From contig CAWHAP010000014.1 of NCBI GenBank assembly GCA_963827335.1, forward strand, positions 88,554 to 152,553: a DNA stretch of 64,000 nt, read 5' to 3'. Under the pieces are notes generated by a model. That model saw only the letters and a list, made by a program, of their open reading frames with translations. It searched no databases and was not told the origin of the DNA. This DNA comes from an uncultured Solirubrobacteraceae bacterium (GTDB lineage Bacteria > Actinomycetota > Thermoleophilia > Solirubrobacterales > Solirubrobacteraceae). A program made the translations under genes and the position numbers. Positions 44,795 through 55,263 of this stretch are shown piece by piece. How positions within the stretch are numbered: the stretch's first letter is position 1; each line of letters starts with the position of its first letter.

Positions 44795-44980
44795 ATGGTC
44801 GCACTCGCCTCCGAACTCGGCACCCTCGTCCTCGCGGTGCTGTTCTGCGCGCTCTCGGTCGCGCTCTGCGCCGCGATCGTCCTCGCCGTCGCCTCCGTGT
44901 ACCGGACGAGCGCCGCGATGGTCCGCCGACTCGTGCACCGGGACGAGCTCGTCGCACGGACGCAGTTCGACCGGTACTAG
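44795..44980 (+). CDS. small membrane protein
   Basis: 61 aa. LGTLVLAVLFCALSVALCAAIVLAVASV hydrophobic core. It ends 3 nt before tRNA-Leu. Confidence 0.4.
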   Translation: MVALASELGTLVLAVLFCALSVALCAAIVLAVASVYRTSAAMVRRLVHRDELVARTQFDRY

Positions 44981-44983
44981 CAG

Positions 44984-45070
44984 TACCCGGGGCGGGACTC
45001 GAACCCGCACGGCCGCGAAGGGCCAACGGCTTTTGAGGCCGTCGTGTCTGACCAGTTCCACCACCCGGGC
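44984..45070 (-). tRNA. tRNA-Leu (anticodon CAA), type II with long variable arm
   Basis: I folded the minus strand by hand. Acceptor GCCCGGG/CCCGGGT, anticodon arm ACGGC-CTCAAAA-GCCGT, variable stem GGCC/GGCC, T arm GCGGG-TTCGAGT-CCCGC. No encoded CCA. Confidence 0.9.
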
Positions 45071-46478: not shown

Positions 46479-46560
46479 GCGGGCGTGGTGAAACTGGCAA
46501 ACACGCCAGGTTTAGGTCCTGGTGCCGCAAGGCTTGGGGGTTCAAGTCCCTCCGCCCGCA
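46479..46560 (+). tRNA. tRNA-Leu (anticodon TAG), type II
   Basis: Acceptor GCGGGCG/CGCCCGC, anticodon arm CCAGG-TTTAGGT-CCTGG, long variable arm, T arm GGGGG-TTCAAGT-CCCTC. A TACAAT hexamer lies 30 nt upstream (46444-46449). Confidence 0.9.
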
Positions 46561-46940
46561 CTGAGCGCGAGCATCGTCCACGCCGGCAGGCCGCCCGCTA
46601 GGCGCAGCTCGTCGCGCACGACGTAGCCGTGGCGCTCGTACAGGCGCACGTTGCCCGGGGACGAGGTCTCGAGGTAGAGCGGCTCCGCCCCGCGCGCGGC
46701 GAGCGCCCGCAGCATCGCGCCGGCCCGCCCGCGCCCCTGTTGCGCGGGGTCGACCCCGAGCGTGAGCAGCGTCCGGTGCGCGATCTCGGGGTGCGCGCCC
46801 TCGAGGCGGATCAGCCCGCGCAGGACGGTCGGGAGCCGGCGCAGCCCCGTCGTGCGGACCAGGTCGGGCAGCTGGCGCAGCTGGTCGCGCGGCCCGAGGT
46901 CCAGCGCGCCCGGATGAGACGGGCCGCACGCTCCGGGCAT
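46542..46940 (-). CDS. GNAT-family N-acetyltransferase (short; possibly N-terminally truncated)
   Basis: Motif A region LGVDPAQQGRGRAGAMLRAL...LYLETSSPGNVRLYERHGY. Its 3' end overlaps tRNA-Leu(TAG) by 19 nt on the opposite strand. Only about 130 aa from ATG 46940. Confidence 0.55.
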   Translation of the reverse strand: MPGACGPSHPGALDLGPRDQLRQLPDLVRTTGLRRLPTVLRGLIRLEGAHPEIAHRTLLTLGVDPAQQGRGRAGAMLRALAARGAEPLYLETSSPGNVRLYERHGYVVRDELRLAGGLPAWTMLALSAGGGT

Positions 46941-47074: not shown

Positions 47075-48901
47075 ATGGTGCAGGAGCCCAGTCGGGACCC
47101 GGGACGCGAGACGGTCCAGGGGACCTGGGAAGGCGAGTCCGTCGAGTACTTCGCCAACCGGGTGATCGTGAAGTTCAAGGCCGGCCGCGAGGACGCGTCC
47201 GGGATCTCGTCGATCGCGGCCGACCTGGTCGCCGAGGTCGACGAGGCCGCGGCGATCGTGCGCCCGCCCGGCCCGACCCGTCGCGCGCTGGTCGCCGTGA
47301 CGGCCGAGGCCGACGTGGCCGAGGTCGCCGCGAAGCTCTCCGCGCGGCCCGACGTGCTGTACGCCGAGCCGGACATCGTCGACCACGCCGCGGTCACGCC
47401 GAACGACACGCGGCTGGCCGAGCAGTGGTCGCTCCCCATGGTCGACGCGTTCGACGCGTGGGACCTCGAGACGGGCGATCCGACCGTGCTGATCGGGGTC
47501 ATCGACTCCGGCATCTCGATGACCGGGGGCGCGCTCGACCACCCGGACCTGAGCGGCTCGCGCTTCACGCTCGGGACCGACTTCGTCGACGGCGGCGAGC
47601 CGCGCGACCTCAACGGCCACGGCACGCACGTCGCCGGCATCGCGGCCGGCCTCGGCGACAACGCCGCCGGCGTCGCCGGGATGGCGTGGGGCACGCGCGT
47701 CTACATCTGCCGCACGCTCGACGCCGCCGGCAGCGGATCCTCGGCGGACTTCGCCGACGCGGTCGAGGAGATCGTCGACTTCGCGCTGGCGAACAACCTG
47801 AAGGCCGTCATCAACTACAGCGGCGGCGGCGGGGCGAACCAGACCAAGCTGGACGCCTGCAACTACGCGAGCACGAACGGCATGCTCCTGTGCGCCGCCA
47901 CGGGCAACGACGACCACGGGCCGGTCATCTGGCCCGCGGCGTACTCGCTCACGGTCCCGGGCGTCGTCGCGGTCGGCTCGACCGACCAGGCCGACCAGGT
48001 CTCGACGTTCTCCAACGTCGGGCCCGAGGTCACGGTCGTCGCGCCGGGCACGGGGATCCTCTCGGCGATGCCGACGTACGCGGTGACGATCAACGCCGGC
48101 CTCAACTTCGGGACGCTCGACGGCACCTCGATGGCGACGCCGCTCGTCACGGGTCTGGCCGCGCTGATGTGGAGCCGGCACATCGGCTTCACGAACCAGA
48201 AGATCAAGGACTGCCTGATCTCCAGCGCGGTCAAGCTGGGCGCCGGCTCGTTCGACAACGCGTGGGGCAACGGCCGCGTGAGCGCCGAGGCGGCGCTGCG
48301 CTGCGGCGACGTCGTCGTGCTCCCCTCGCTCGTCGGGCCGGGCTGCACGCCGTCGCGGATCATCGTGCAGTGCCCGAGCCGCATCGTCGCGCAGTGCCCG
48401 ACGCGGATCCCGGTCCGCTGCCCGTCGCGGATCATCGTGCAGTGCCCGTCGCTCGTGCCGGAGACGTGCCCGACGCAGGTCCCGGCGCTGTGTCCGACGC
48501 AGGTCCCGGCGCGCTGTCCGTCGCGGGCGCCCGTGCTGTGCCCGGTGTCGCGCGTGCCGGCCGAGTGCCCGTCGCGGCTGCCGGTGCTGTGCCCGACGAC
48601 GCTGGTCCCGGCGACGTGCGGCCGGGTCTCGCAGATCCCGGCGCTGTGCCCGACCCCGTCGGCGATCCCGGCGACGTGCCCGATCCCGTTCCCGGACCTC
48701 CCGATCCCGGACCCGGGACCGCTGCGGCCCGCGGGCGAGGGGTCCGAGCAGTGGTACGGCGATGGCGAGTGGTACGTGCTGGACGACGCGGGCGAGGCAC
48801 GGGCGTTCCCCGGCCCGGACGCGGCCGCCGCCTCGCCGGAGTCGGCGGAGTGGTACTGGCTCGACGACCAGGGCGGGACGCACTACTGGTCCGGCGGTTG
48901 A
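47075..48901 (+). CDS. subtilisin-like (S8) serine protease with N-terminal I9-like propeptide, no signal peptide, and a C-terminal Cys-Pro-Ser/Thr repeat tail
   Basis: GGAGG lies 9 nt upstream of ATG 47075. Catalytic triad contexts are VIGVIDSGI, NGHGTHVAGIAAG and LDGTSMATPLVTG. The propeptide-like region is NRVIVKFKAG...PDVLYAEPD. The N-terminus MVQEPSRDPGRETVQGTWEGE has no hydrophobic segment. Confidence 0.9.
   Translation: MVQEPSRDPGRETVQGTWEGESVEYFANRVIVKFKAGREDASGISSIAADLVAEVDEAAAIVRPPGPTRRALVAVTAEADVAEVAAKLSARPDVLYAEPDIVDHAAVTPNDTRLAEQWSLPMVDAFDAWDLETGDPTVLIGVIDSGISMTGGALDHPDLSGSRFTLGTDFVDGGEPRDLNGHGTHVAGIAAGLGDNAAGVAGMAWGTRVYICRTLDAAGSGSSADFADAVEEIVDFALANNLKAVINYSGGGGANQTKLDACNYASTNGMLLCAATGNDDHGPVIWPAAYSLTVPGVVAVGSTDQADQVSTFSNVGPEVTVVAPGTGILSAMPTYAVTINAGLNFGTLDGTSMATPLVTGLAALMWSRHIGFTNQKIKDCLISSAVKLGAGSFDNAWGNGRVSAEAALRCGDVVVLPSLVGPGCTPSRIIVQCPSRIVAQCPTRIPVRCPSRIIVQCPSLVPETCPTQVPALCPTQVPARCPSRAPVLCPVSRVPAECPSRLPVLCPTTLVPATCGRVSQIPALCPTPSAIPATCPIPFPDLPIPDPGPLRPAGEGSEQWYGDGEWYVLDDAGEARAFPGPDAAAASPESAEWYWLDDQGGTHYWSGG
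48344..48700 (+). repeat. in-frame tandem 24-27-nt repeats encoding about 14 Cys-Pro-(Ser/Thr)-x5 units
   Basis: CTPSRIIVQ CPSRIVAQ CPTRIPVR CPSRIIVQ CPSLVPET CPTQVPAL CPTQVPAR CPSRAPVL CPVSRVPAE CPSRLPVL CPTTLVPAT CGRVSQIPAL CPTPSAIPAT CPIPFPDL. The TGCCCG(A/T)C(G/C) periodicity is visible in the DNA. Confidence 0.9.
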
Positions 48902-49851
48902 CCGAGGAGCACGGGCCGGCGGCGATCGTGCAGCTGCGCGCCGCCGGCCTCCTCTCCGCACGCGAGATCGTCGAGCAGGGCGTGCGCGTGGTCGACCGGT
49001 CGCGCTCGCACGCGGTCCGGCTCGTCGAGGTCGGCAGCCGCCCGGCCTACGCGGTCAAGGCCCTGGACGACGGCGCCGACGGCGACGTCCAGGGCTCGCC
49101 CGCGCGCGAGCTCGCGGCCTACGCGCTCGCGCGCAGCGACCCGGGGCTCGCGCCGCTGCTCGCACGCAGCCACCCCGCCGCCGACGGCGCGGGCGTCCTG
49201 ATCCTCGAGGCCGGCGGGTCCGCGACCGCGGCGGCGAGCGCCGCCGACCCCGCAGCGCTGCGGGCGCTCGCCACCACGCTCGCGGCGTGGCACGCCGGCA
49301 CGCGCGGCGTGCCGTTCCCGCCGCTGCGGCCGTGGCCGCTCGACCTGCTGGCCGGCGCCCCGCCCGCCTTCCTCGCGGGCAACGACGGCGTGCGCGCGCT
49401 GCTCGCCTGGCTGCCGGAGCGCGCGCTGCTGACGGCCACGCTCGCCGCGGCCGGCGCGCGCTGGGCGCCGCTGGCCGTCGTCCACGGGGACGCGCGGCTC
49501 GACAACTGGCTGCTCGACGGGGCCGGCGGCGCGACGCTGATCGACTGGGAGACGTCCGGGCGCGGCGACCCGGCCTGGGACGTCGCCGCCGTCCTCCAGG
49601 ACGTGATCACCGTGAGCGGCGCCGAGCGGCTCGCCGCCGTGCCCGCCGCGCGCGTGCGCCCGTTCCTGGACGCCTACGCGCAGGCGGCGGGCGACGACGT
49701 GCGCGAGCGGCTCGCCGGGCTGCTGTGCGCGCGGCTGCTGCAGCGCGCGGTGCAGGCGGCGGCGTGGGATCCGGCGGGGACGGTGCCCGAGGCGCGGCGC
49801 CATGCGCGCCTCGCCGCCGAGCTCGCCGGCCGGCCGCCGGCATGGGCATGA
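48898..49851 (+). CDS. aminoglycoside-phosphotransferase-like (APH / protein-kinase-like fold) kinase
   Basis: Catalytic loop VVHGDARLDNWLL and LIDWETSGRGDPAWDVA; N-lobe AYAVKAL. The start is uncertain: TTG 48898 (overlapping the protease stop, TTGA) or GTG 48928. Confidence 0.75.
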   Translation: MTEEHGPAAIVQLRAAGLLSAREIVEQGVRVVDRSRSHAVRLVEVGSRPAYAVKALDDGADGDVQGSPARELAAYALARSDPGLAPLLARSHPAADGAGVLILEAGGSATAAASAADPAALRALATTLAAWHAGTRGVPFPPLRPWPLDLLAGAPPAFLAGNDGVRALLAWLPERALLTATLAAAGARWAPLAVVHGDARLDNWLLDGAGGATLIDWETSGRGDPAWDVAAVLQDVITVSGAERLAAVPAARVRPFLDAYAQAAGDDVRERLAGLLCARLLQRAVQAAAWDPAGTVPEARRHARLAAELAGRPPAWA

Positions 49852-50729
49852 CCGTCGAGGAGCAGCTGCGCGAGGCCGCGGCGCTGGTCCGCCCCGGCAC
49901 GGGCCGGGAGGCGCTCGCCGAGGCCCTCTACGCCGGCTGGTACCTGCAGCTCGCCGCCGAGCCGCCACCGTCCGGGCCGCTGCGCCCGATCGAGCTCGAC
50001 GTCGTCGCCGCCCTGCGCGCCGCCCATGCCGGCAGCGACCGCTTCGAGCCGGGCTGGCGGGCGCGGCGCGTCTCGACCCATGGCCGCGCCGAGGCGGTCC
50101 GCGGCGACCTGACCCGCGTGGTGGACCGCGGCGACTACCTCGTCCTCGCCCGCCCGGGCCTGCGCGCCGAGCCCGGCGACGAGCTGGCGCTGCTCGCGCG
50201 CGAGGACACGGTCGAGAACGGGTTCTGGATGACGTTCTTCGGCGACTGGGAGGAGGCGGCCAAGGCGGTCGTCACGCGGCTCTACTGGCGCGTGTCCGCG
50301 GCCGGCGCGCCCGCGCTCGTGCGGGCGCTCACCGGCGTGCTGCTCGACGGCGGGGCGTCCGCCGCGCTCAAGGCGCCCGTGCGGGCCGACGGCTTCGGGC
50401 GCGCCGACGCCGTCGTCGTCTACCTGCCGCCGCCGACCTTCTCCGCGCTGTCGGACCGCCTCGCCGCGGTCGCGGCGGCACTGGAGGGGGAGCTGCGCGA
50501 CCCGCCGCCGCGGCTCGCGCGCCGCCTCGCCCGCGGCGTGGGCGCCGCGGAGGGCCGTGCCGGCGCCGAGAGCTTCGGCCAGGCGCGCTGCCGGCTGGTC
50601 GCCGCCGCCCTCGCGGCGCCGGGCGACGAGCCGCCCGTCGAGCGCATCCGGGCGACCTTCGCCGCGGCCGGGCTCGATCCCGTCCGCCCGCACCTCGAGC
50701 CCGGGAGCCGCGAGCGCTATGCCTGGTGA
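49842..50729 (+). CDS. HopA1-effector-like family protein (putative phospho-Ser/Thr lyase component)
   Basis: VTRLYWRVSAAGAPALVRALTGVLLDGG...LKAPVRADGFGRADAVVVYLPP matches my recollection of the actinobacterial HopA1-family pattern. ATG 49842 or ATG 49848 (the latter overlaps the kinase stop as ATGA). Confidence 0.6.
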   Translation: MGMTVEEQLREAAALVRPGTGREALAEALYAGWYLQLAAEPPPSGPLRPIELDVVAALRAAHAGSDRFEPGWRARRVSTHGRAEAVRGDLTRVVDRGDYLVLARPGLRAEPGDELALLAREDTVENGFWMTFFGDWEEAAKAVVTRLYWRVSAAGAPALVRALTGVLLDGGASAALKAPVRADGFGRADAVVVYLPPPTFSALSDRLAAVAAALEGELRDPPPRLARRLARGVGAAEGRAGAESFGQARCRLVAAALAAPGDEPPVERIRATFAAAGLDPVRPHLEPGSRERYAW

Positions 50730-51969
50730 CGGCGCGCGCCTGCTGGAGGCGGCGTGCGCGGTGGGCGATCAGCTCGTGCGCGACGCGGTGTGGTGGGACG
50801 GGCGCTGCACCTGGCTCGGCGACGCCGTCGAGCTCGACGAGGACGAGTGGCGCGTCGTGCACCGCTCCTGTGCCGGCGATCTCTACGCGGGCACGAGCGG
50901 GGTCGGCGTGTTCCTCGCCCGGCTCGCCGAGCACACCGGCGACGACCGGCACGGCGCGGCCGCGCGGGGCGCGCTGCTCCAGGCGCTGGCCGGCGCCGAC
51001 GGCGACCTCTCGCTCTACGGCGGAGCCACGGGCGTCGCGTGGGCGGCGGCCGAGGCGGGACGGGCGACCGGCGACGACGAGCTGCTCGAGCACGCGGCGG
51101 CGCTGACGGCCCGGATCGCCGCGGATGCGGCCGGCGGCGTCTTCGCCGACGACCTCGTCGGCGGCCGCGCGGGGGTCGCGCTGGGCCTGCTCGACCTCGG
51201 CCGGCGGCTCGGGCTGCCGGCGGCGCGGAGCGCCGCGCTGGACCTCGGGGAGGCGCTCGTGGCCGTCGCGCACCGGGACGCGAGCGGATTGTCGTGGCCG
51301 CTCGGCACGCCGCCCGGCGAGCCCGGCCTGTGCGGGCTCGGGCACGGCGCCGCCGGCGTCGCCCACGCGCTGCTCGAGCTGCACGCGGCCGGCGGCGACG
51401 CCGCGCTCGGAGCGGCGGCCGCCTCCGCCGCGGCCTACGAGCGCGCCTGGCTGAGCCCGGCGCAGGCGAACTGGCCCGACCTGCGCGGCCTGGAGCGCGA
51501 CGCCGTCGCGGCCGGCACGCTCCCCGCGTACTCGAGCTTCTGGTGCCACGGCTCGGTGGGCGTCGGGCTGGCGCGGCTGCGCGCGTGGGAGCTGACCGGC
51601 TCCCAGCGCGACCTCGCGGACGCCGGCATCGCGCTGCAGGCCGCGACGCACGACGCGCGGGCGCTCGTCGCCGGCGGCGACCCGTCGCTCTGCCACGGCG
51701 TCGCCGGGCTCGCCGAGCTGTTCCTCTACGCGGGCGAGGTCCTCGGGCGGCCCGAGCACCGCGCCGTCGGCTGCCGGCTCGCGGCGACGATCGTCGACGC
51801 GCGCGAACGGACCGGCACGTGGGGGAGCGGGGTGCTCGGCGGCGGGGAGGCGCCCGGCCTCATGGTCGGCCTCGCGGGCCTCGGCTGCGTGCTCCTGCGT
51901 GCCGCTCTGCCCGGGCGCAGCGCGCCCGCCGGGCTGCTCTGCGTCCCGGCTGCGACAATCTCGGCATGA
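50719..51969 (+). CDS. LanC-like lanthionine cyclase
   Basis: Motifs LYAGTSGVGVFL, GLGHGAAGVAHALLEL, SFWCHGSVGVGLA and SLCHGVAGLAELF, i.e. the conserved His and the Cys-His Zn-ligand pairs of LanC. The ATG overlaps the upstream gene by 11 nt. Confidence 0.85.
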   Translation: MPGDGARLLEAACAVGDQLVRDAVWWDGRCTWLGDAVELDEDEWRVVHRSCAGDLYAGTSGVGVFLARLAEHTGDDRHGAAARGALLQALAGADGDLSLYGGATGVAWAAAEAGRATGDDELLEHAAALTARIAADAAGGVFADDLVGGRAGVALGLLDLGRRLGLPAARSAALDLGEALVAVAHRDASGLSWPLGTPPGEPGLCGLGHGAAGVAHALLELHAAGGDAALGAAAASAAAYERAWLSPAQANWPDLRGLERDAVAAGTLPAYSSFWCHGSVGVGLARLRAWELTGSQRDLADAGIALQAATHDARALVAGGDPSLCHGVAGLAELFLYAGEVLGRPEHRAVGCRLAATIVDARERTGTWGSGVLGGGEAPGLMVGLAGLGCVLLRAALPGRSAPAGLLCVPAATISA

Positions 51970-52208
51970 GCGAGGAGCCGCGCGCCCTGTCGCGCGTGAT
52001 CGTGAAGCTCACCGGCACGGATCTCGAGGCGCGCGCCGCCGAGCTCGCCGGCCGGCTGCCAGGCGGCACCGTCGTGCGCGTCTCCGGCTCGGGCCGCGCC
52101 GTGATCGCCATCGAGCCCGGCGCCGACACCGCCGCGGCGGCCGCCTCGCTCTCCGCGGAGCCCGACGTGGTCTACGCCGAGCCCGACACCGAGGACCGCG
52201 CCGTCTAG
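51966..52208 (+). CDS. stand-alone subtilisin-propeptide (inhibitor I9)-like protein
   Basis: 80 aa. The ATG overlaps the LanC stop (ATGA). SRVIVKLTG...LSAEPDVVYAEPDTEDRAV parallels the protease's own NRVIVKFKAG...LSARPDVLYAEPDIVDHAAV. It contains no Cys. Confidence 0.7.
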   Translation: MSEEPRALSRVIVKLTGTDLEARAAELAGRLPGGTVVRVSGSGRAVIAIEPGADTAAAAASLSAEPDVVYAEPDTEDRAV

Positions 52209-53419
52209 ACGCTGACGAGCAGGCCGGTCGCGAACATCAGCGCGAGCCCGGCCAGCAGCCCGGTCACCGCGACCGGGTGCAGCGTGCGGCCCTCGCCGTC
52301 GCGGAGCGTGGGGGCGAGCTGCACGATCACCTGGACGATCGCGCCGGCGCCGAACCCGAACAGGAACGCCGCCAGGCTGGCGTTGAACGCCGCCGCGCCG
52401 ATCCAGGCGCCCAGCACCGCCGGCGCGCCCGCGATCAGGCCGAGCAGCGCGAGCCGCCGCAGCGACGGGCGCAGGTGGGCGACCGGCGCGACGATCGCGA
52501 GCCCCTCGGTCGTGTTGTGCAGCGCGAAGCCCACGACGAGGAACGCGCCGAGCGCCAGCGCTCCCGCGGAGTAGGCCGAGCCGATGGCCACGCCCTCGCC
52601 GAGGTTGTGCAGGCCGATGCCGGTGGCGACCAGCAGCGCGAGGTGCCCGCCCGACGCGCCCGCCGCGCGGGCGGCCGCGCGGCGCTGCTGCAGCCATGCC
52701 GACACGCCCGTGAGGAGCAGGAAGGCGACGACCGCGCCGACGAGCACCAGCGCCGCGCCGCCGAAGGCCTGGGACCCCTCGCCGGCCAGCTCGAAGCCCT
52801 CGAGCGTGGCGTCGATCGCCAGGAACACGAGCAGCCCGACGGTGAGCGCCATGATCCCGCGCAGCCAGCCGGGCGGGATGCGCCGGATCCAGGGCAGCCA
52901 GAGCATCCCGAGCGCGACCGGGATCACGCCCACGTAGATGCCGAGCAGCGCCATCAGGCCGAAGAACGAGAGGTCGGTGTCGGGCGTCGCGACGGCGACG
53001 GGGATCTCGTGCGCGATCGTCCCGCCCGACGACGTGAGCAGCGCGACCTCGTAGGCCTCGCCCTCGACCCACGGCTGCTGGAGGCGGACGGTGGCGGTCT
53101 CGAGCCGGCCGACGGGCGCGTCCGCGCCGCTGAACTGCACGAACGCGTCGTTGACCTGCGCCTGGGCGATCGAGACCGCGTCGGGCCCGTCGTTGCGGAC
53201 GGTCAGCTCGATCGTGCCGGGCTCCAGGACGGTCTTCTCGACCGCCAGCTCCTCGGCGGGCGGTCCGCGACGGTCGCCGAGCCCAGGGCCGCCGAGCGCG
53301 GCGAACGCGCCCACCGCGGCGATGATGAGGACCAGCGGGACGAGGCCGAGCAGCCACGCCGGCAGGCCGGCGGTCGGATCGTCGCGCAGCTCGCGCTCCG
53401 TGGCCGCCGAGCTCTCCAT
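52205..53419 (-). CDS. ZIP-family divalent metal transporter with an N-terminal extra-membrane domain
   Basis: GIGLHNLGEGVAIG and GFALHNTTEGLAIV (HNxxEG motifs) and multiple TM helices. The ATG overlaps the upstream stop by 1 nt (TGATG). Confidence 0.8.
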   Translation of the reverse strand: MESSAATERELRDDPTAGLPAWLLGLVPLVLIIAAVGAFAALGGPGLGDRRGPPAEELAVEKTVLEPGTIELTVRNDGPDAVSIAQAQVNDAFVQFSGADAPVGRLETATVRLQQPWVEGEAYEVALLTSSGGTIAHEIPVAVATPDTDLSFFGLMALLGIYVGVIPVALGMLWLPWIRRIPPGWLRGIMALTVGLLVFLAIDATLEGFELAGEGSQAFGGAALVLVGAVVAFLLLTGVSAWLQQRRAAARAAGASGGHLALLVATGIGLHNLGEGVAIGSAYSAGALALGAFLVVGFALHNTTEGLAIVAPVAHLRPSLRRLALLGLIAGAPAVLGAWIGAAAFNASLAAFLFGFGAGAIVQVIVQLAPTLRDGEGRTLHPVAVTGLLAGLALMFATGLLVSV

Positions 53420-54462
53420 CACGTGACCTCGAAGAAGCCCTGCCAGCCGAGCTCGGTGAACTCGGACTGGTGGGCGTGGAACATGAACTTGCCGGCGTGC
53501 GGGAAGCGCCACTCGAGGATCCCGCGCTGGCCCTGGCAGAGCATCACGGTGTCCGTGAGCTCCGACGGGGTCTTGCCGGTCCCGGTCGGGTAGTAGTGGA
53601 ACAGGTTCCCGTGCAGGTGGAACGAGTTGATCAGGTCGTACTCGAGCACGTTGACGAGGTAGACGCGGACCAGCTCGTCGCGCGCCGCGGCGATCGGCGT
53701 GTCCATGTAGGCGAAGCCGATCGTGTTGGCCGCGTAGACCTCGTTGGCGCGGTCGAAGTTCGTGTCGAACCCGTTCATGACCATCACCAGCTCGTCGGCG
53801 TCCTCGCGCCCGTCGGCGGGGTCGACGATGAACGCGCCGTACAGGCCCTTGGCGATGTGCTCGGCGAGGGGGCGGACGTGGCAGTGGTAGAGGTGCAGCC
53901 CGGCGGGCAGCGCGTCGAACTCGTAGACGGTGCTCCCGCCCGGGGGGATCTCGCCCGCGCCGAGCCCGGGCACGCCGTCCATCTCGGCCGGGTGGATGCC
54001 GTGGAAGTGGATCGTGTGCGGATGGGCGGAGCCGTTGGCGAACGTGATCCGCAGCCGCTCGCCCTCCCGGCAGCGCAGCGTCGGCCCCGGGATGCGGCCG
54101 TTGTAGGTCCACGCCGCGAAGCGCACGCCGGGCGCGACCTCGATCTCGCGGTCGACGGCGTGCAGCTCCCACTCGCGCAGCACGCGGCCGTTCGCCATCC
54201 GGGTCGTCGTGCCCCAGTCGAAGTCGCGCAGGATCTCGTGCGGGTCGAAGCCGTTCGCCGCGTGGTCCACCGTCCGGCCGTCGCGGAAGCTCGCGTGCCC
54301 GCCGTGCGTCGCCGTGGCGGCGTGCCCCTCGTGCGTGCCCGCCGCGAGCGCCTCGTGCTCCCACGGGTGGCCGTGCGGGACGACGGAGTGCAGCGCCGCC
54401 GCCACGCCGCCGGCGGCCGGCACGGAGGCGGCGAGCAGGCGGCGGCGGCTGAGCTTGGGCAT
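53419..54462 (-). CDS. Tat-exported two-domain multicopper oxidase
   Basis: MPKLSRRRLLAAS twin-arginine signal. Cu-binding motifs HTIHFHG, LYHCHV, FHLHG and FHAHQ. 347 aa. Confidence 0.8.
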   Translation of the reverse strand: MPKLSRRRLLAASVPAAGGVAAALHSVVPHGHPWEHEALAAGTHEGHAATATHGGHASFRDGRTVDHAANGFDPHEILRDFDWGTTTRMANGRVLREWELHAVDREIEVAPGVRFAAWTYNGRIPGPTLRCREGERLRITFANGSAHPHTIHFHGIHPAEMDGVPGLGAGEIPPGGSTVYEFDALPAGLHLYHCHVRPLAEHIAKGLYGAFIVDPADGREDADELVMVMNGFDTNFDRANEVYAANTIGFAYMDTPIAAARDELVRVYLVNVLEYDLINSFHLHGNLFHYYPTGTGKTPSELTDTVMLCQGQRGILEWRFPHAGKFMFHAHQSEFTELGWQGFFEVT

Positions 54463-54542: not shown

Positions 54543-54614
54543 GGGGGACTGGTCCAACGGCTAGGATGGCGGTCTCCAAAACCGCAGGTTGGGGTTCGAT
54601 TCCCTGGTCCCCCG
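54543..54614 (+). tRNA. tRNA-Trp (anticodon CCA)
   Basis: Acceptor GGGGGAC/GTCCCCC, anticodon arm GCGGT-CTCCAAA-ACCGC, T loop TTCGATT. The T stem has two G-U pairs. Confidence 0.8.
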
Positions 54615-54615
54615 C

Positions 54616-55263
54616 TTGATCCGCGCCGTCATCTTCGATCTCGACGGCCTCCTGCTCGACTCGGAGTCCGCCTGGGACGGCGGTCGCCGGGCGCTCGTCG
54701 CCGAGCACGGCCTCGACTGGCCCGACGGGGCGACGGAGGCGATGCTCGGCATGAGCTCGCCGGAATGGTCGCGCCACGTCCGCGACGAGCTGGGCGTGGA
54801 CCTCGATCCCGCGGCGATCAGCGACCGCGTCGTCGCGCACGTGCTCGACACCTACGCCGAGCGGCTGCCGCTGCTGCCGGGCGCCGAGGCCGCGGTCGCG
54901 CGGATCGCGGAGCGCTGGCCGCTCGCGCTCGCGTCCTCCTCCAACAAGGAGGTCATCGACCGGGTGCTGGCGACCTCCGGCTGGGACGCGGTCTTCCGCG
55001 TGTGGGTGTCCTCGGAGGAGGTCGGCCGCGGCAAGCCGGCGCCCGACGTGTTCCTGGAGGCGGCCCGCCGGATCGCGGTCGACCCGGCCGAGGCGGCCGG
55101 CGTCGAGGACTCGCACAACGGCATCCTGGCGGCGCGCGCGGCCGGGCTGCGCGTGATCGCGATCCCCAACCACGAGTTCCCTCCGGGGGACGAGGCCCTC
55201 GGCGCCGCCGACGTGGTGCTCGGCGGGCTGGACGAGCTCACGCCCGCCGTGATCGAGGGATAG
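54616..55263 (+). CDS. HAD-superfamily hydrolase (beta-phosphoglucomutase-like phosphatase subfamily)
   Basis: AVIFDLDGLLLDSE (DxD motif I), SSSN (motif II) and GVEDSHNGILAARAAG (motif IV). The only start upstream of motif I that does not lie inside the tRNA is TTG 54616. Confidence 0.8.
   Translation: MIRAVIFDLDGLLLDSESAWDGGRRALVAEHGLDWPDGATEAMLGMSSPEWSRHVRDELGVDLDPAAISDRVVAHVLDTYAERLPLLPGAEAAVARIAERWPLALASSSNKEVIDRVLATSGWDAVFRVWVSSEEVGRGKPAPDVFLEAARRIAVDPAEAAGVEDSHNGILAARAAGLRVIAIPNHEFPPGDEALGAADVVLGGLDELTPAVIEG

Follow-up and report, generated by a model that had tools for sequence, protein, structure and literature searches.

A cysteine-periodic subtilase tail as the probable built-in substrate of a split lanthionine synthetase in an uncultured Solirubrobacteraceae bacterium

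Class V lanthipeptide biosynthesis is defined by the enzymes LanK and LanY, and most members (class Va) are without a LanC (PMC11186320, PMC12328550). Subgroup Vb adds a dedicated LanC; its sole characterized case, according to these sources, is SmoK, SmoY and SmoC acting on the short peptide SmoA, for which lanthionine formation was established experimentally (PMC11186320, PMC12328550). According to a review, actinobacteria are to date the one group known to make lanthipeptides of class V (PMC12328550). The locus described here lies in a 64,000-nucleotide stretch of DNA (the window) from an uncultured Solirubrobacteraceae bacterium (GenBank assembly GCA_963827335.1, contig CAWHAP010000014.1, positions 88,554 to 152,553 of the forward strand). 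In this locus, the gene for an S8 subtilase with a periodic cysteine-rich tail is followed directly by genes for a kinase, a lyase and a cyclase of the lanthionine-forming type. We consider it probable that the 119-residue Cys array of the protease is the built-in substrate ("core") of a split lanthionine synthetase, whose three genes come next and are translationally coupled to that of the protease.

The window carries the same three separate enzymes as the SmoA system, whose class Vb characterization is reportedly the work of Pei et al. in 2022: an APH-fold kinase, a HopA1 lyase with its Lys/Arg/Tyr residues, and a zinc LanC. Judged by sequence, each of the three is as expected for class Vb, whereas a short precursor (about 110 amino acids or less) with an N-terminal leader was not found; the candidate substrate is a 119-residue array on a 608-residue protease, and its conserved motif is C-terminal. 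SmoA reportedly has three rings, two of them overlapping, whereas 13 serial rings would be expected in the window's array. Because of this difference in substrate, and because the enzymes match the curated models of LxmK and LanL only remotely, the system was not filed as an ordinary class Vb member, although it is predicted to work like one. The features of the protease and its operon are as follows, in window coordinates.

47075..48901, + strand: S8 subtilase gene, 608 amino acids (open reading frame, translation, third-position GC, Pfam Peptidase_S8 2.1e-47, Fervidolysin_NPro-like 1.3e-10)
47129..47374, + strand: subtilase N-terminal prodomain, residues 19-100 (Pfam PF22148, fervidolysin-type)
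47483..48274, + strand: S8 catalytic domain, residues 137-400 (Pfam; motif positions)
48344..48700, + strand: Cys array of 14 Cys-initiated units, Cys424 to Leu542, 119 residues (translation, shuffles, Tandem Repeats Finder)
48701..48766, + strand: Pro-rich spacer PIPDPGPLRPAGEGSEQWYGDG that separates the Cys array from the C-terminal motifs (translation; partly conserved in P0001 and L120)
48767..48787, + strand: first E-W-Y-V-L-D-D motif (translation; missing from the orthologue L120)
48848..48898, + strand: terminal motif EWYWLDDQGGTHYWSGG, the second W-Y-x-L-D-D copy (alignment with Cys-tailed relatives)
48898..49851, + strand: APH-fold Ser/Thr kinase, LanK-like (Pfam APH 5.8e-16)
49842..50729, + strand: HopA1-family phospho-Ser/Thr lyase, LanY-like (Pfam HopA1 8.7e-26; start overlaps the kinase stop)
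50719..51969, + strand: zinc-type LanC cyclase (Pfam LANC_like 1.3e-48; start overlaps the HopA1 stop)
51966..52208, + strand: stand-alone subtilase prodomain-like protein, 80 amino acids (Pfam Fervidolysin_NPro-like 8.4e-08; its ATG overlaps the LanC stop as ATGA)

Genes in this window of about 75% G+C were assigned by third-position GC content (GC3) together with Pfam. GC3 was 0.92-0.99 in the frame of 47075-48901 (+), which was therefore taken as the coding frame. Translation of this frame reproduced exactly the peptide and the 14-unit array quoted in an initial annotation, which had been made from the sequence alone and which had also described a Cys every 8-10 residues, almost always followed by Pro and then by Ser or Thr. 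The measured Cys-to-Cys spacings were 9, 8, 8, 8, 8, 8, 8, 8, 9, 8, 9, 10 and 10, and the units, of 8-10 residues, follow the consensus C-P-[ST]-[RQ]-h-P-h-x. Cys-Pro was present in 12 of the 14 units and Cys-Pro-Ser/Thr in 10, with Ser/Thr at position +2 or +3 in 12; Ser/Thr is missing from the last unit, CPIPFPDL. In 5000 composition-preserving shuffles, the observed counts of C-P or of C-x-S/T were never reached, so that the annotated pattern held on counting. Every one of the 13 inter-Cys segments of the window's tail contains Ser/Thr (shuffle P = 0.024 for this tail alone), as do 131/131 such segments across 12 tails.

At the DNA level, Tandem Repeats Finder returned the annotated 24-nucleotide periodicity (period 24, 69-70% matches). 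The 24-nucleotide units had a mean pairwise identity of 67%, the best pair agreeing at 21/24 positions, which bears out the initial claim that the units have diverged; the accompanying claim that the array is not a product of recent slippage needs softening. A strain variant from JGI/IMG (P0153; 600 amino acids, 99% identical) is without exactly one octad, CPTQVPAR (window 48491-48514), and this octad differs from its left neighbor at 3 of 24 bases. Unit copy number thus changes through recent recombination or slippage, and gain and loss of whole units is ongoing. The tails of the orthologues L120 and L001 contain 13 and 12 Cys, respectively.

The spacing between the prospective donor and acceptor residues was stricter than the spacing between Cys residues. 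Ser/Thr had been placed 5-7 residues upstream of the next Cys; the placement was borne out and could be sharpened, since in 13/13 segments of the window's tail, 12/12 of L120 and 11/11 of L001 the distance from a Ser/Thr to the next Cys is exactly 6 residues. Among units of 9 or 10 residues, this six-residue distance holds in 13 of 13, and the offset from the preceding Cys in 4 of 13. Since the distance from Ser/Thr to the next Cys never changes in the window lineage, extra residues appear to be tolerated only between a Cys and the Ser/Thr that follows it. A fixed distance of this kind would be expected for a Ser/Thr(i)-Cys(i+6) ring of fixed size, and the array contains 13 potential donor/acceptor pairs with this spacing. 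It is highly improbable that the tail is only dehydrated, or that it is cross-linked in another way, for example by Cys(i)-Ser(i+2) mini-rings or by intermolecular links. Outside the window lineage the offset from Cys to Ser/Thr (+2) is as well kept as that from Ser/Thr to Cys, which would allow such topologies, but within the window lineage the constraint clearly lies on the distance to the following Cys.

Selection on the tail followed the same positions. Between the window and L120, the ratio of nonsynonymous to synonymous substitution rates (dN/dS) was 0.10 at those tail positions that hold Cys, the Pro after it or Ser/Thr (33/34 residues identical), 1.41 at the remaining tail positions (49/77 identical) and 0.11 in the catalytic domain. 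Comparison with the noisier L001 gave 0.12 for the catalytic domain, 0.48 for the Cys, Pro and Ser/Thr positions and 1.23 for the other tail positions. Purifying selection on the Cys, Pro and Ser/Thr positions, which had been proposed as a check on the array, was therefore seen in the comparison with L120. The pattern suggests a fixed ring-forming scaffold with loop residues that are free or diversifying.

The operon consists of five genes, for the protease, kinase, lyase, cyclase and prodomain. Their starts and stops overlap or abut, with no space for a further gene, and independent gene calls on the L120 contig gave the same five genes. Pfam confirmed the kinase, HopA1 and LanC neighbors that the initial annotation had named. 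The kinase starts at TTG 48898, in a TTGA overlap with the protease stop, or at GTG 48928; its catalytic motifs HGDARLDN and DWE are intact and are conserved in L114, L116, L118 and L120. In the HopA1 protein, K177-x9-R187-x6-Y194 has the same spacing as K219/R229/Y236 of CaoY, and an Arg in the sequence TRLY about 31 residues upstream matches CaoY R187; mutagenesis showed that the catalytic Lys, Arg and Tyr of CaoY are needed for phosphate elimination (PMC9486802). The best NCBIfam match of the LanC was the LanM cyclase domain (226 bits). Its WCHG, CHG and GLGHGAAG motifs align with the LicM2 cyclase domain, with Cys-Cys-His as zinc ligands, and WCHG, CHG and GxxHGxxG are conserved in seven cassettes. 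With these catalytic motifs intact, the three lanthionine-type enzymes look functional.

The class IV synthetases, LanL, share with the proposed pathway the sequence of phosphorylation, elimination and zinc-dependent cyclization, and the window's cyclase matches the LanL model at 126 bits. However, LanL is one polypeptide with an OspF-type lyase and a protein-kinase domain, whereas the window has three overlapping genes with a HopA1 lyase and an APH kinase. Membership in class IV was rejected on these grounds: the score of 126 bits compares with a cut-off of 650, the match is limited to the cyclase, and the genes are three and separate.

The protease itself has the sequence of an active S8 subtilase, with the catalytic triad and oxyanion residues present as D144 (DSG), H182 (HGTH), N278 (GND) and S352 (GTSMA). 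In a PDB search, its nearest solved structures were Ak.1 protease, thermitase and subtilisins. The best NCBIfam name for it, type VII secretion system (T7SS) mycosin, was ruled out, the score being 150.9 bits against an equivalog cut-off of 278.75. The stand-alone prodomain gene at the end of the operon, which the initial annotation had not listed, is kept after LanC in L001, L086 and L120, and its product is probably an inhibitor or chaperone that restrains the protease.

Searches with the Cys tail itself recovered few relatives. A word-indexed search gave four, and an exhaustive HMMER search gave 271 matches, among which only P0001, P0002, P0003, P0012, P0051 and P0010 were genuine relatives. 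Most of the HMMER matches inspected were spurious, consisting of P/T/S-rich or eukaryote-like low-complexity repeats (P0005-P0009, P0020, P0064, P0089, P0104, P0112, P0123), and a PDB sequence search with the tail returned low-complexity matches only. Because of this scarcity, the survey of relatives was seeded on protease motifs at the end of the catalytic domain and run as genome and metagenome scans blind to the tail and to the neighboring genes. The loci recovered were typed by tblastn with the window's enzymes, and each tail was then read. Several metagenomic relatives (L001 and the proteins P0002, P0003 and P0012) are full of frameshifts, with fused or split open reading frames for protease, kinase and HopA1 and with Arg-rich out-of-frame stretches; the frameshifts look like assembly errors in high-GC sequence, and these relatives were taken in only where the reading frame was intact.

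The survey divided the protease family by tail and partner. Group A, with Cys tails, comprises the window, L001, L120, L002/85/86, L084, L087, L088/89, L090, L097 and L100. These tails have 9-14 Cys spaced 6-10 apart, with Ser/Thr in every inter-Cys segment. In 10 of 10 distinct loci where the gene after the protease can be read, that gene encodes an APH kinase; HopA1, LanC and prodomain genes come after it as far as the contigs continue. Loss of the tail from orthologues that keep the kinase, HopA1 and LanC genes had been named in advance as a refutation; the tail was kept in each of these 10. Group A spans 55-66% catalytic-domain identity and includes a Planctomycetota metagenome-assembled genome (MAG; L002). 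A further locus, L083, has a tail of the group A type on a contig that ends before the next gene.

Group B consists of L003 (Humitalea sp.) and L091-L104, forming 10 distinct loci. Its members belong to the same protease subfamily. Their catalytic domain likewise ends in a conserved RCGD and is followed by a periodic repeat, with a modifying-enzyme gene next and a stand-alone prodomain gene nearby. However, the tails are free of Cys and consist of (F/L)TRFT repeats with 17-30 Thr, and the next gene encodes a GT2 glycosyltransferase in 10/10 distinct loci; a helical C-terminal domain takes the place of the WYxLDD motif. This domain, of about 100 amino acids, comes after the repeat. The arrangement was noted at L003:8127-8885 (NZ_CP192599) and in L091-L105. 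The glycosyltransferase resembles MftF most closely in NCBIfam, and in several group B loci (e.g., L098, L099 and L103-L105) the prodomain-like stretch stands alone just upstream of the protease. Group B is presumably a parallel modified-tail system in which the tail is O-glycosylated, and its pairing of tail and GT2 appears to be undescribed, although no literature search was aimed at it. In group C (L106-L113), the C-terminus is globular and of about 600 amino acids, and neither lanthionine enzymes nor a GT2 are adjacent. The interpretation of the tail as a series of lanthionine rings, first put forward in the initial annotation, is supported at the level of sequence by the selection on the tail and by its retention together with the enzymes.

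The same cysteine module was found on a second protein scaffold. This second family (P0010/P0163-P0183) has members of 370-1040 amino acids with 20-102 Cys, no Pfam domain and is unrelated to the protease; its conserved N-terminal domain (DRLV.DPKNPP...HRRLYLDPEL...) differs from that of the protease. Repeated Cys modules in several members are separated by Gly-rich linkers. A 13-residue motif, CPSAVDACPSAPG, or a near variant of it, is present in 10/22 members, and CPSAVDACPSAPG occurs identically in the group A protease tails of L084, L086 and L087. In all three contexts examined (L114/115, L116/117 and L118), the second-family gene is directly followed by APH, HopA1 and LanC genes. The second-family genes in these contexts are as follows.

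L114, 4829-6457: second-family gene (P0165)
L116, 10001-11476: second-family gene (P0175)
L118, 10001-12541: second-family gene (P0173)

The L116/117 protein is labeled Dormibacteraeota in NCBI, and L118 is a Bryobacteraceae MAG. In contrast to the known range of class V, the window's cassette occurs also in a Planctomycetota MAG, and the second scaffold in Acidobacteriota- and Dormibacteraeota-labeled MAGs. A papain-like Peptidase_C1 gene lies directly upstream in two of the contexts (L114, 30.6 bits, and L118, 24.2 bits; cut-off 20.7), so that a protease is a recurrent partner of the cassette. L114 and L116 also have MacB/FtsX-type ABC transporters at distances within 5-8 kb.

The enzymes might act on some other substrate, either a small peptide encoded elsewhere or a cellular protein, with the tail serving as a docking site, scaffold or decoy. 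Some class V pathways cyclize their products without a cyclase, and the pairing of enzyme and substrate can be loose (PMC11186320), which would accommodate both this explanation and the alternative cross-links considered above. It is nevertheless highly improbable: a separate small Cys/Ser-rich precursor open reading frame was not found in or beside the operon, and the two protein families encoded ahead of APH-HopA1-LanC have a single feature in common, the Cys/Ser/Thr-periodic module. The only small conserved open reading frame nearby, at 44795-44980, which has a homologue in L120, was rejected as a 61-residue membrane protein without a C-terminal Cys/Ser core.

For the Cys array as a built-in substrate, we infer the following route. 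The APH-type kinase would phosphorylate the Ser/Thr that stands 6 residues before each Cys, the HopA1-type lyase would eliminate the phosphate to give dehydroalanine or dehydrobutyrine (Dha/Dhb), and the zinc LanC would add the thiol of the Cys six residues downstream. The product would have a series of as many as 13 (methyl)lanthionine rings of 7 residues each, none overlapping another and each linked to the next by one Pro, forming a thioether "bead chain" on a cytoplasmic subtilase. The WYxLDD motif would dock the modifying enzymes, and the stand-alone prodomain would restrain the protease.

The candidate for docking was suggested by conservation at the end of the tail. An aromatic-aromatic-x-[LIVF]-D-D-[DA] core forms the C-terminal end of every Cys-tailed member of the protease family; it was seen in L083-L100, P0004 and P0051, with W593, D597 and G600 invariant in the alignment. 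The WYxLDD motif is kept in all group A tails and is missing from the second scaffold family, which makes it the best candidate for a family-specific docking element and the likeliest recognition ("follower") element for the modifying enzymes. A Y-x-x-x-D pattern at a C-terminus resembles a type VII secretion signal. Such a signal was rejected as a general explanation of the motif, which is equally conserved in the Planctomycetota MAG (L002) on a protease that is not a mycosin. The likeness of Y-x-L-D to the F-N-L-D box of the nisin leader is a lead and not evidence.

The location of the tail bears on its chemistry. By a crude hydropathy test, neither a signal peptide nor a membrane segment was detected at the protease N-terminus, which has low hydropathy, and the proteases and second-family proteins likewise showed no N-terminal hydrophobic segment. 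The reducing cytoplasm should therefore be where the thiols are found, which makes a disulfide ladder unlikely. Downstream of the operon (52205-54330 (-) and 54565-55263 (+)) are genes for a ZIP-like transporter, a two-domain multicopper oxidase and a HAD hydrolase. Synteny of these genes extends to L120, a close relative, and gene calls in L001 likewise include the multicopper oxidase and the HAD hydrolase. No support was seen for a link between them and the Cys-rich tail.

A metal-binding (Zn or Cu), heme-binding (Cys-Pro) or disulfide-laddered stalk was weighed as a further explanation of the array, for which the adjacency of lanthionine enzymes would be uninformative about function. With 14 thiols at regular intervals, of which 12 belong to Cys-Pro dipeptides, and with the ZIP-like transporter and multicopper oxidase immediately downstream in the window, L001 and L120, such a function would be understandable, but we regard it as very unlikely. 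Synteny of the metal genes was seen in close relatives only (the contigs of distant group A members being too short to show them), whereas the kinase, lyase and cyclase are kept at 55-66% protease identity and on the second scaffold. In heme regulatory motifs, Cys-Pro is usually followed by a hydrophobic residue; here Ser/Thr comes after Cys-Pro in 10/14 units, with V and I in the other two Cys-Pro units. Binding of metal or heme would also leave unexplained why a Ser/Thr stands exactly 6 residues before every next Cys, and why the Cys tail was exchanged for a Thr tail jointly with a change to a glycosyltransferase.

A different fate of the tail would leave the chemistry as proposed. The protease could be a giant leader and maturation enzyme in one, the subtilase cutting off its own tail in cis or in trans and freeing, whole or in fragments, a polycyclic lanthipeptide some 120 residues long. 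We regard this as unlikely, but as the main variant of our reading and, given the recurrent protease partner, a serious one; in it, the stand-alone prodomain would curb the protease until modification is complete. S8 proteases are the classical lanthipeptide leader peptidases (LanP), encoded with lanthionine-forming enzymes, and one of them, ElxP, is cytoplasmic (NisP and ElxP; PMC10885120). In the cassettes surveyed the protease partner recurs, fused here and as a separate upstream Peptidase_C1 in L114 and L118, and MacB/FtsX-type transporters are present near two second-family loci. The Cys modules with Gly-rich linkers of the second family resemble multi-core precursors, and hypervariability at the non-scaffold positions (dN/dS of about 1.2-1.4) is typical of secreted bioactive peptides. 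LanP proteases are separate from their precursors and have no Cys/Ser repeat, whereas the window's protease carries the putative core itself and has an extra stand-alone prodomain gene in its operon. Against release, no exporter was found in the window's operon, and the rings would be contiguous, joined only by Pro.

Three observations led us to lean towards a cross-linked module that stays on the protease as a redox-proof, protease-resistant stalk or regulatory module. There is no conserved cleavage motif at the flanks of the array or between its units; the array is internal, with a conserved C-terminal motif after it; and the Thr repeat of the sister clade lies between the protease and a folded-looking helical domain, as a linker would, rather than as a product.

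Several points weigh against the array as substrate of the three enzymes. In a crude neighbor-joining tree, group A is a single clade nested among group B, and because of this the 10-versus-10 co-variation of tail and enzyme amounts to about one evolutionary switch rather than 20 independent events. The tail dN/dS values rest on 111 codons, in repeats whose alignments can be mis-registered. In the other lineages, the Ser/Thr-to-Cys distance is mixed (4-6), and no offset discriminates ring direction. The kinase scores 29 bits against the NCBIfam LxmK model, for which the cut-off is 315, and is not an equivalog of it; to our knowledge, the known class V substrates are all short peptides with N-terminal leaders. 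The ZIP-like transporter and multicopper oxidase downstream in the window and its close relatives keep a metal-related function under consideration. AlphaFold2 modeling of the full protease from a five-sequence alignment gave a mean predicted local distance difference test (pLDDT) score of 29, at which even the S8 domain was not modeled, and was uninformative on the tail.

Other features of the neighborhood were also noted. Two tRNA-Leu genes lie upstream of the operon, at 44983-45070 (-) and 46479-46561 (+), with anticodons CAA and TAG; they bracket genes for a dehydrogenase and a small membrane protein, and the second overlaps the 3' end of a mechanically called GNAT open reading frame. A scan of the operon for promoters and terminators found nothing, as expected at 75% GC. 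An anti-phage defense system was rejected, since in PADLOC only the generic "subtilase" model matched the protease, and the kinase, lyase, cyclase and prodomain were unmatched. The nearest HopA1 relative in a named organism, at 42% identity, is in Acrocarpospora phusangensis (L119:3028-8746, BOOA01000099), on a contig that begins within the APH gene; the APH-HopA1-LanC trio is followed there, on the opposite strand, by three genes for Ser/Thr protein kinases of 620-643 amino acids.

In the literature searched, the coverage of which was incomplete, no description of a protease-fused or protein-sized lanthionine substrate was found, and a 2023 review of the proteases of RiPPs (peptides that ribosomes synthesize and that are then modified post-translationally) mentions no fusion of precursor and protease (PMC10885120). 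Earlier genome mining gathered only open reading frames of fewer than 110 residues near LanK/LanY (PMC9486802). Because mining of this kind looks for precursors of less than about 110 residues, protein-sized substrates would be systematically missed.

A large catalytic protein with a core at its own C-terminus has a counterpart in the borosin-type RiPP precursor OphMA, a methyltransferase that carries the modified core at its own C-terminus. There the fused enzyme itself carries out the modification, whereas in the window the core is fused to a protease and modification would fall to separate enzymes. The window system would combine known enzymology with an unprecedented substrate that is fused to an enzyme, tandem and of protein scale.

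Otherwise, nearly all known lanthionine chemistry is that of short secreted peptides. Should the tail indeed carry the proposed modification, this would be a natural stapling of a whole enzyme with 13 serial thioether rings, within a widespread, multi-phylum cassette of a Cys-periodic protein, a protease and LanK/Y/C, and the array could supply a repeat-encoded scaffold for engineering protease-resistant, redox-proof protein linkers. We propose tentatively, as a possibility that falls short of a probable conclusion, that split LanK/LanY/LanC synthetases put long ladders of thioether rings into full-size proteins in several phyla, a new class of ribosomal "lanthionine proteins." Such a class would include the subtilase with 13 rings in its tail and the family of 370-1040 amino acids with up to about 100 Cys, each with a protease partner, and the glycosylated-tail system of the sister clade would be its parallel. 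If this is true, irreversible, redox-insensitive cross-links would do in the cytoplasm what disulfides do outside the cell.

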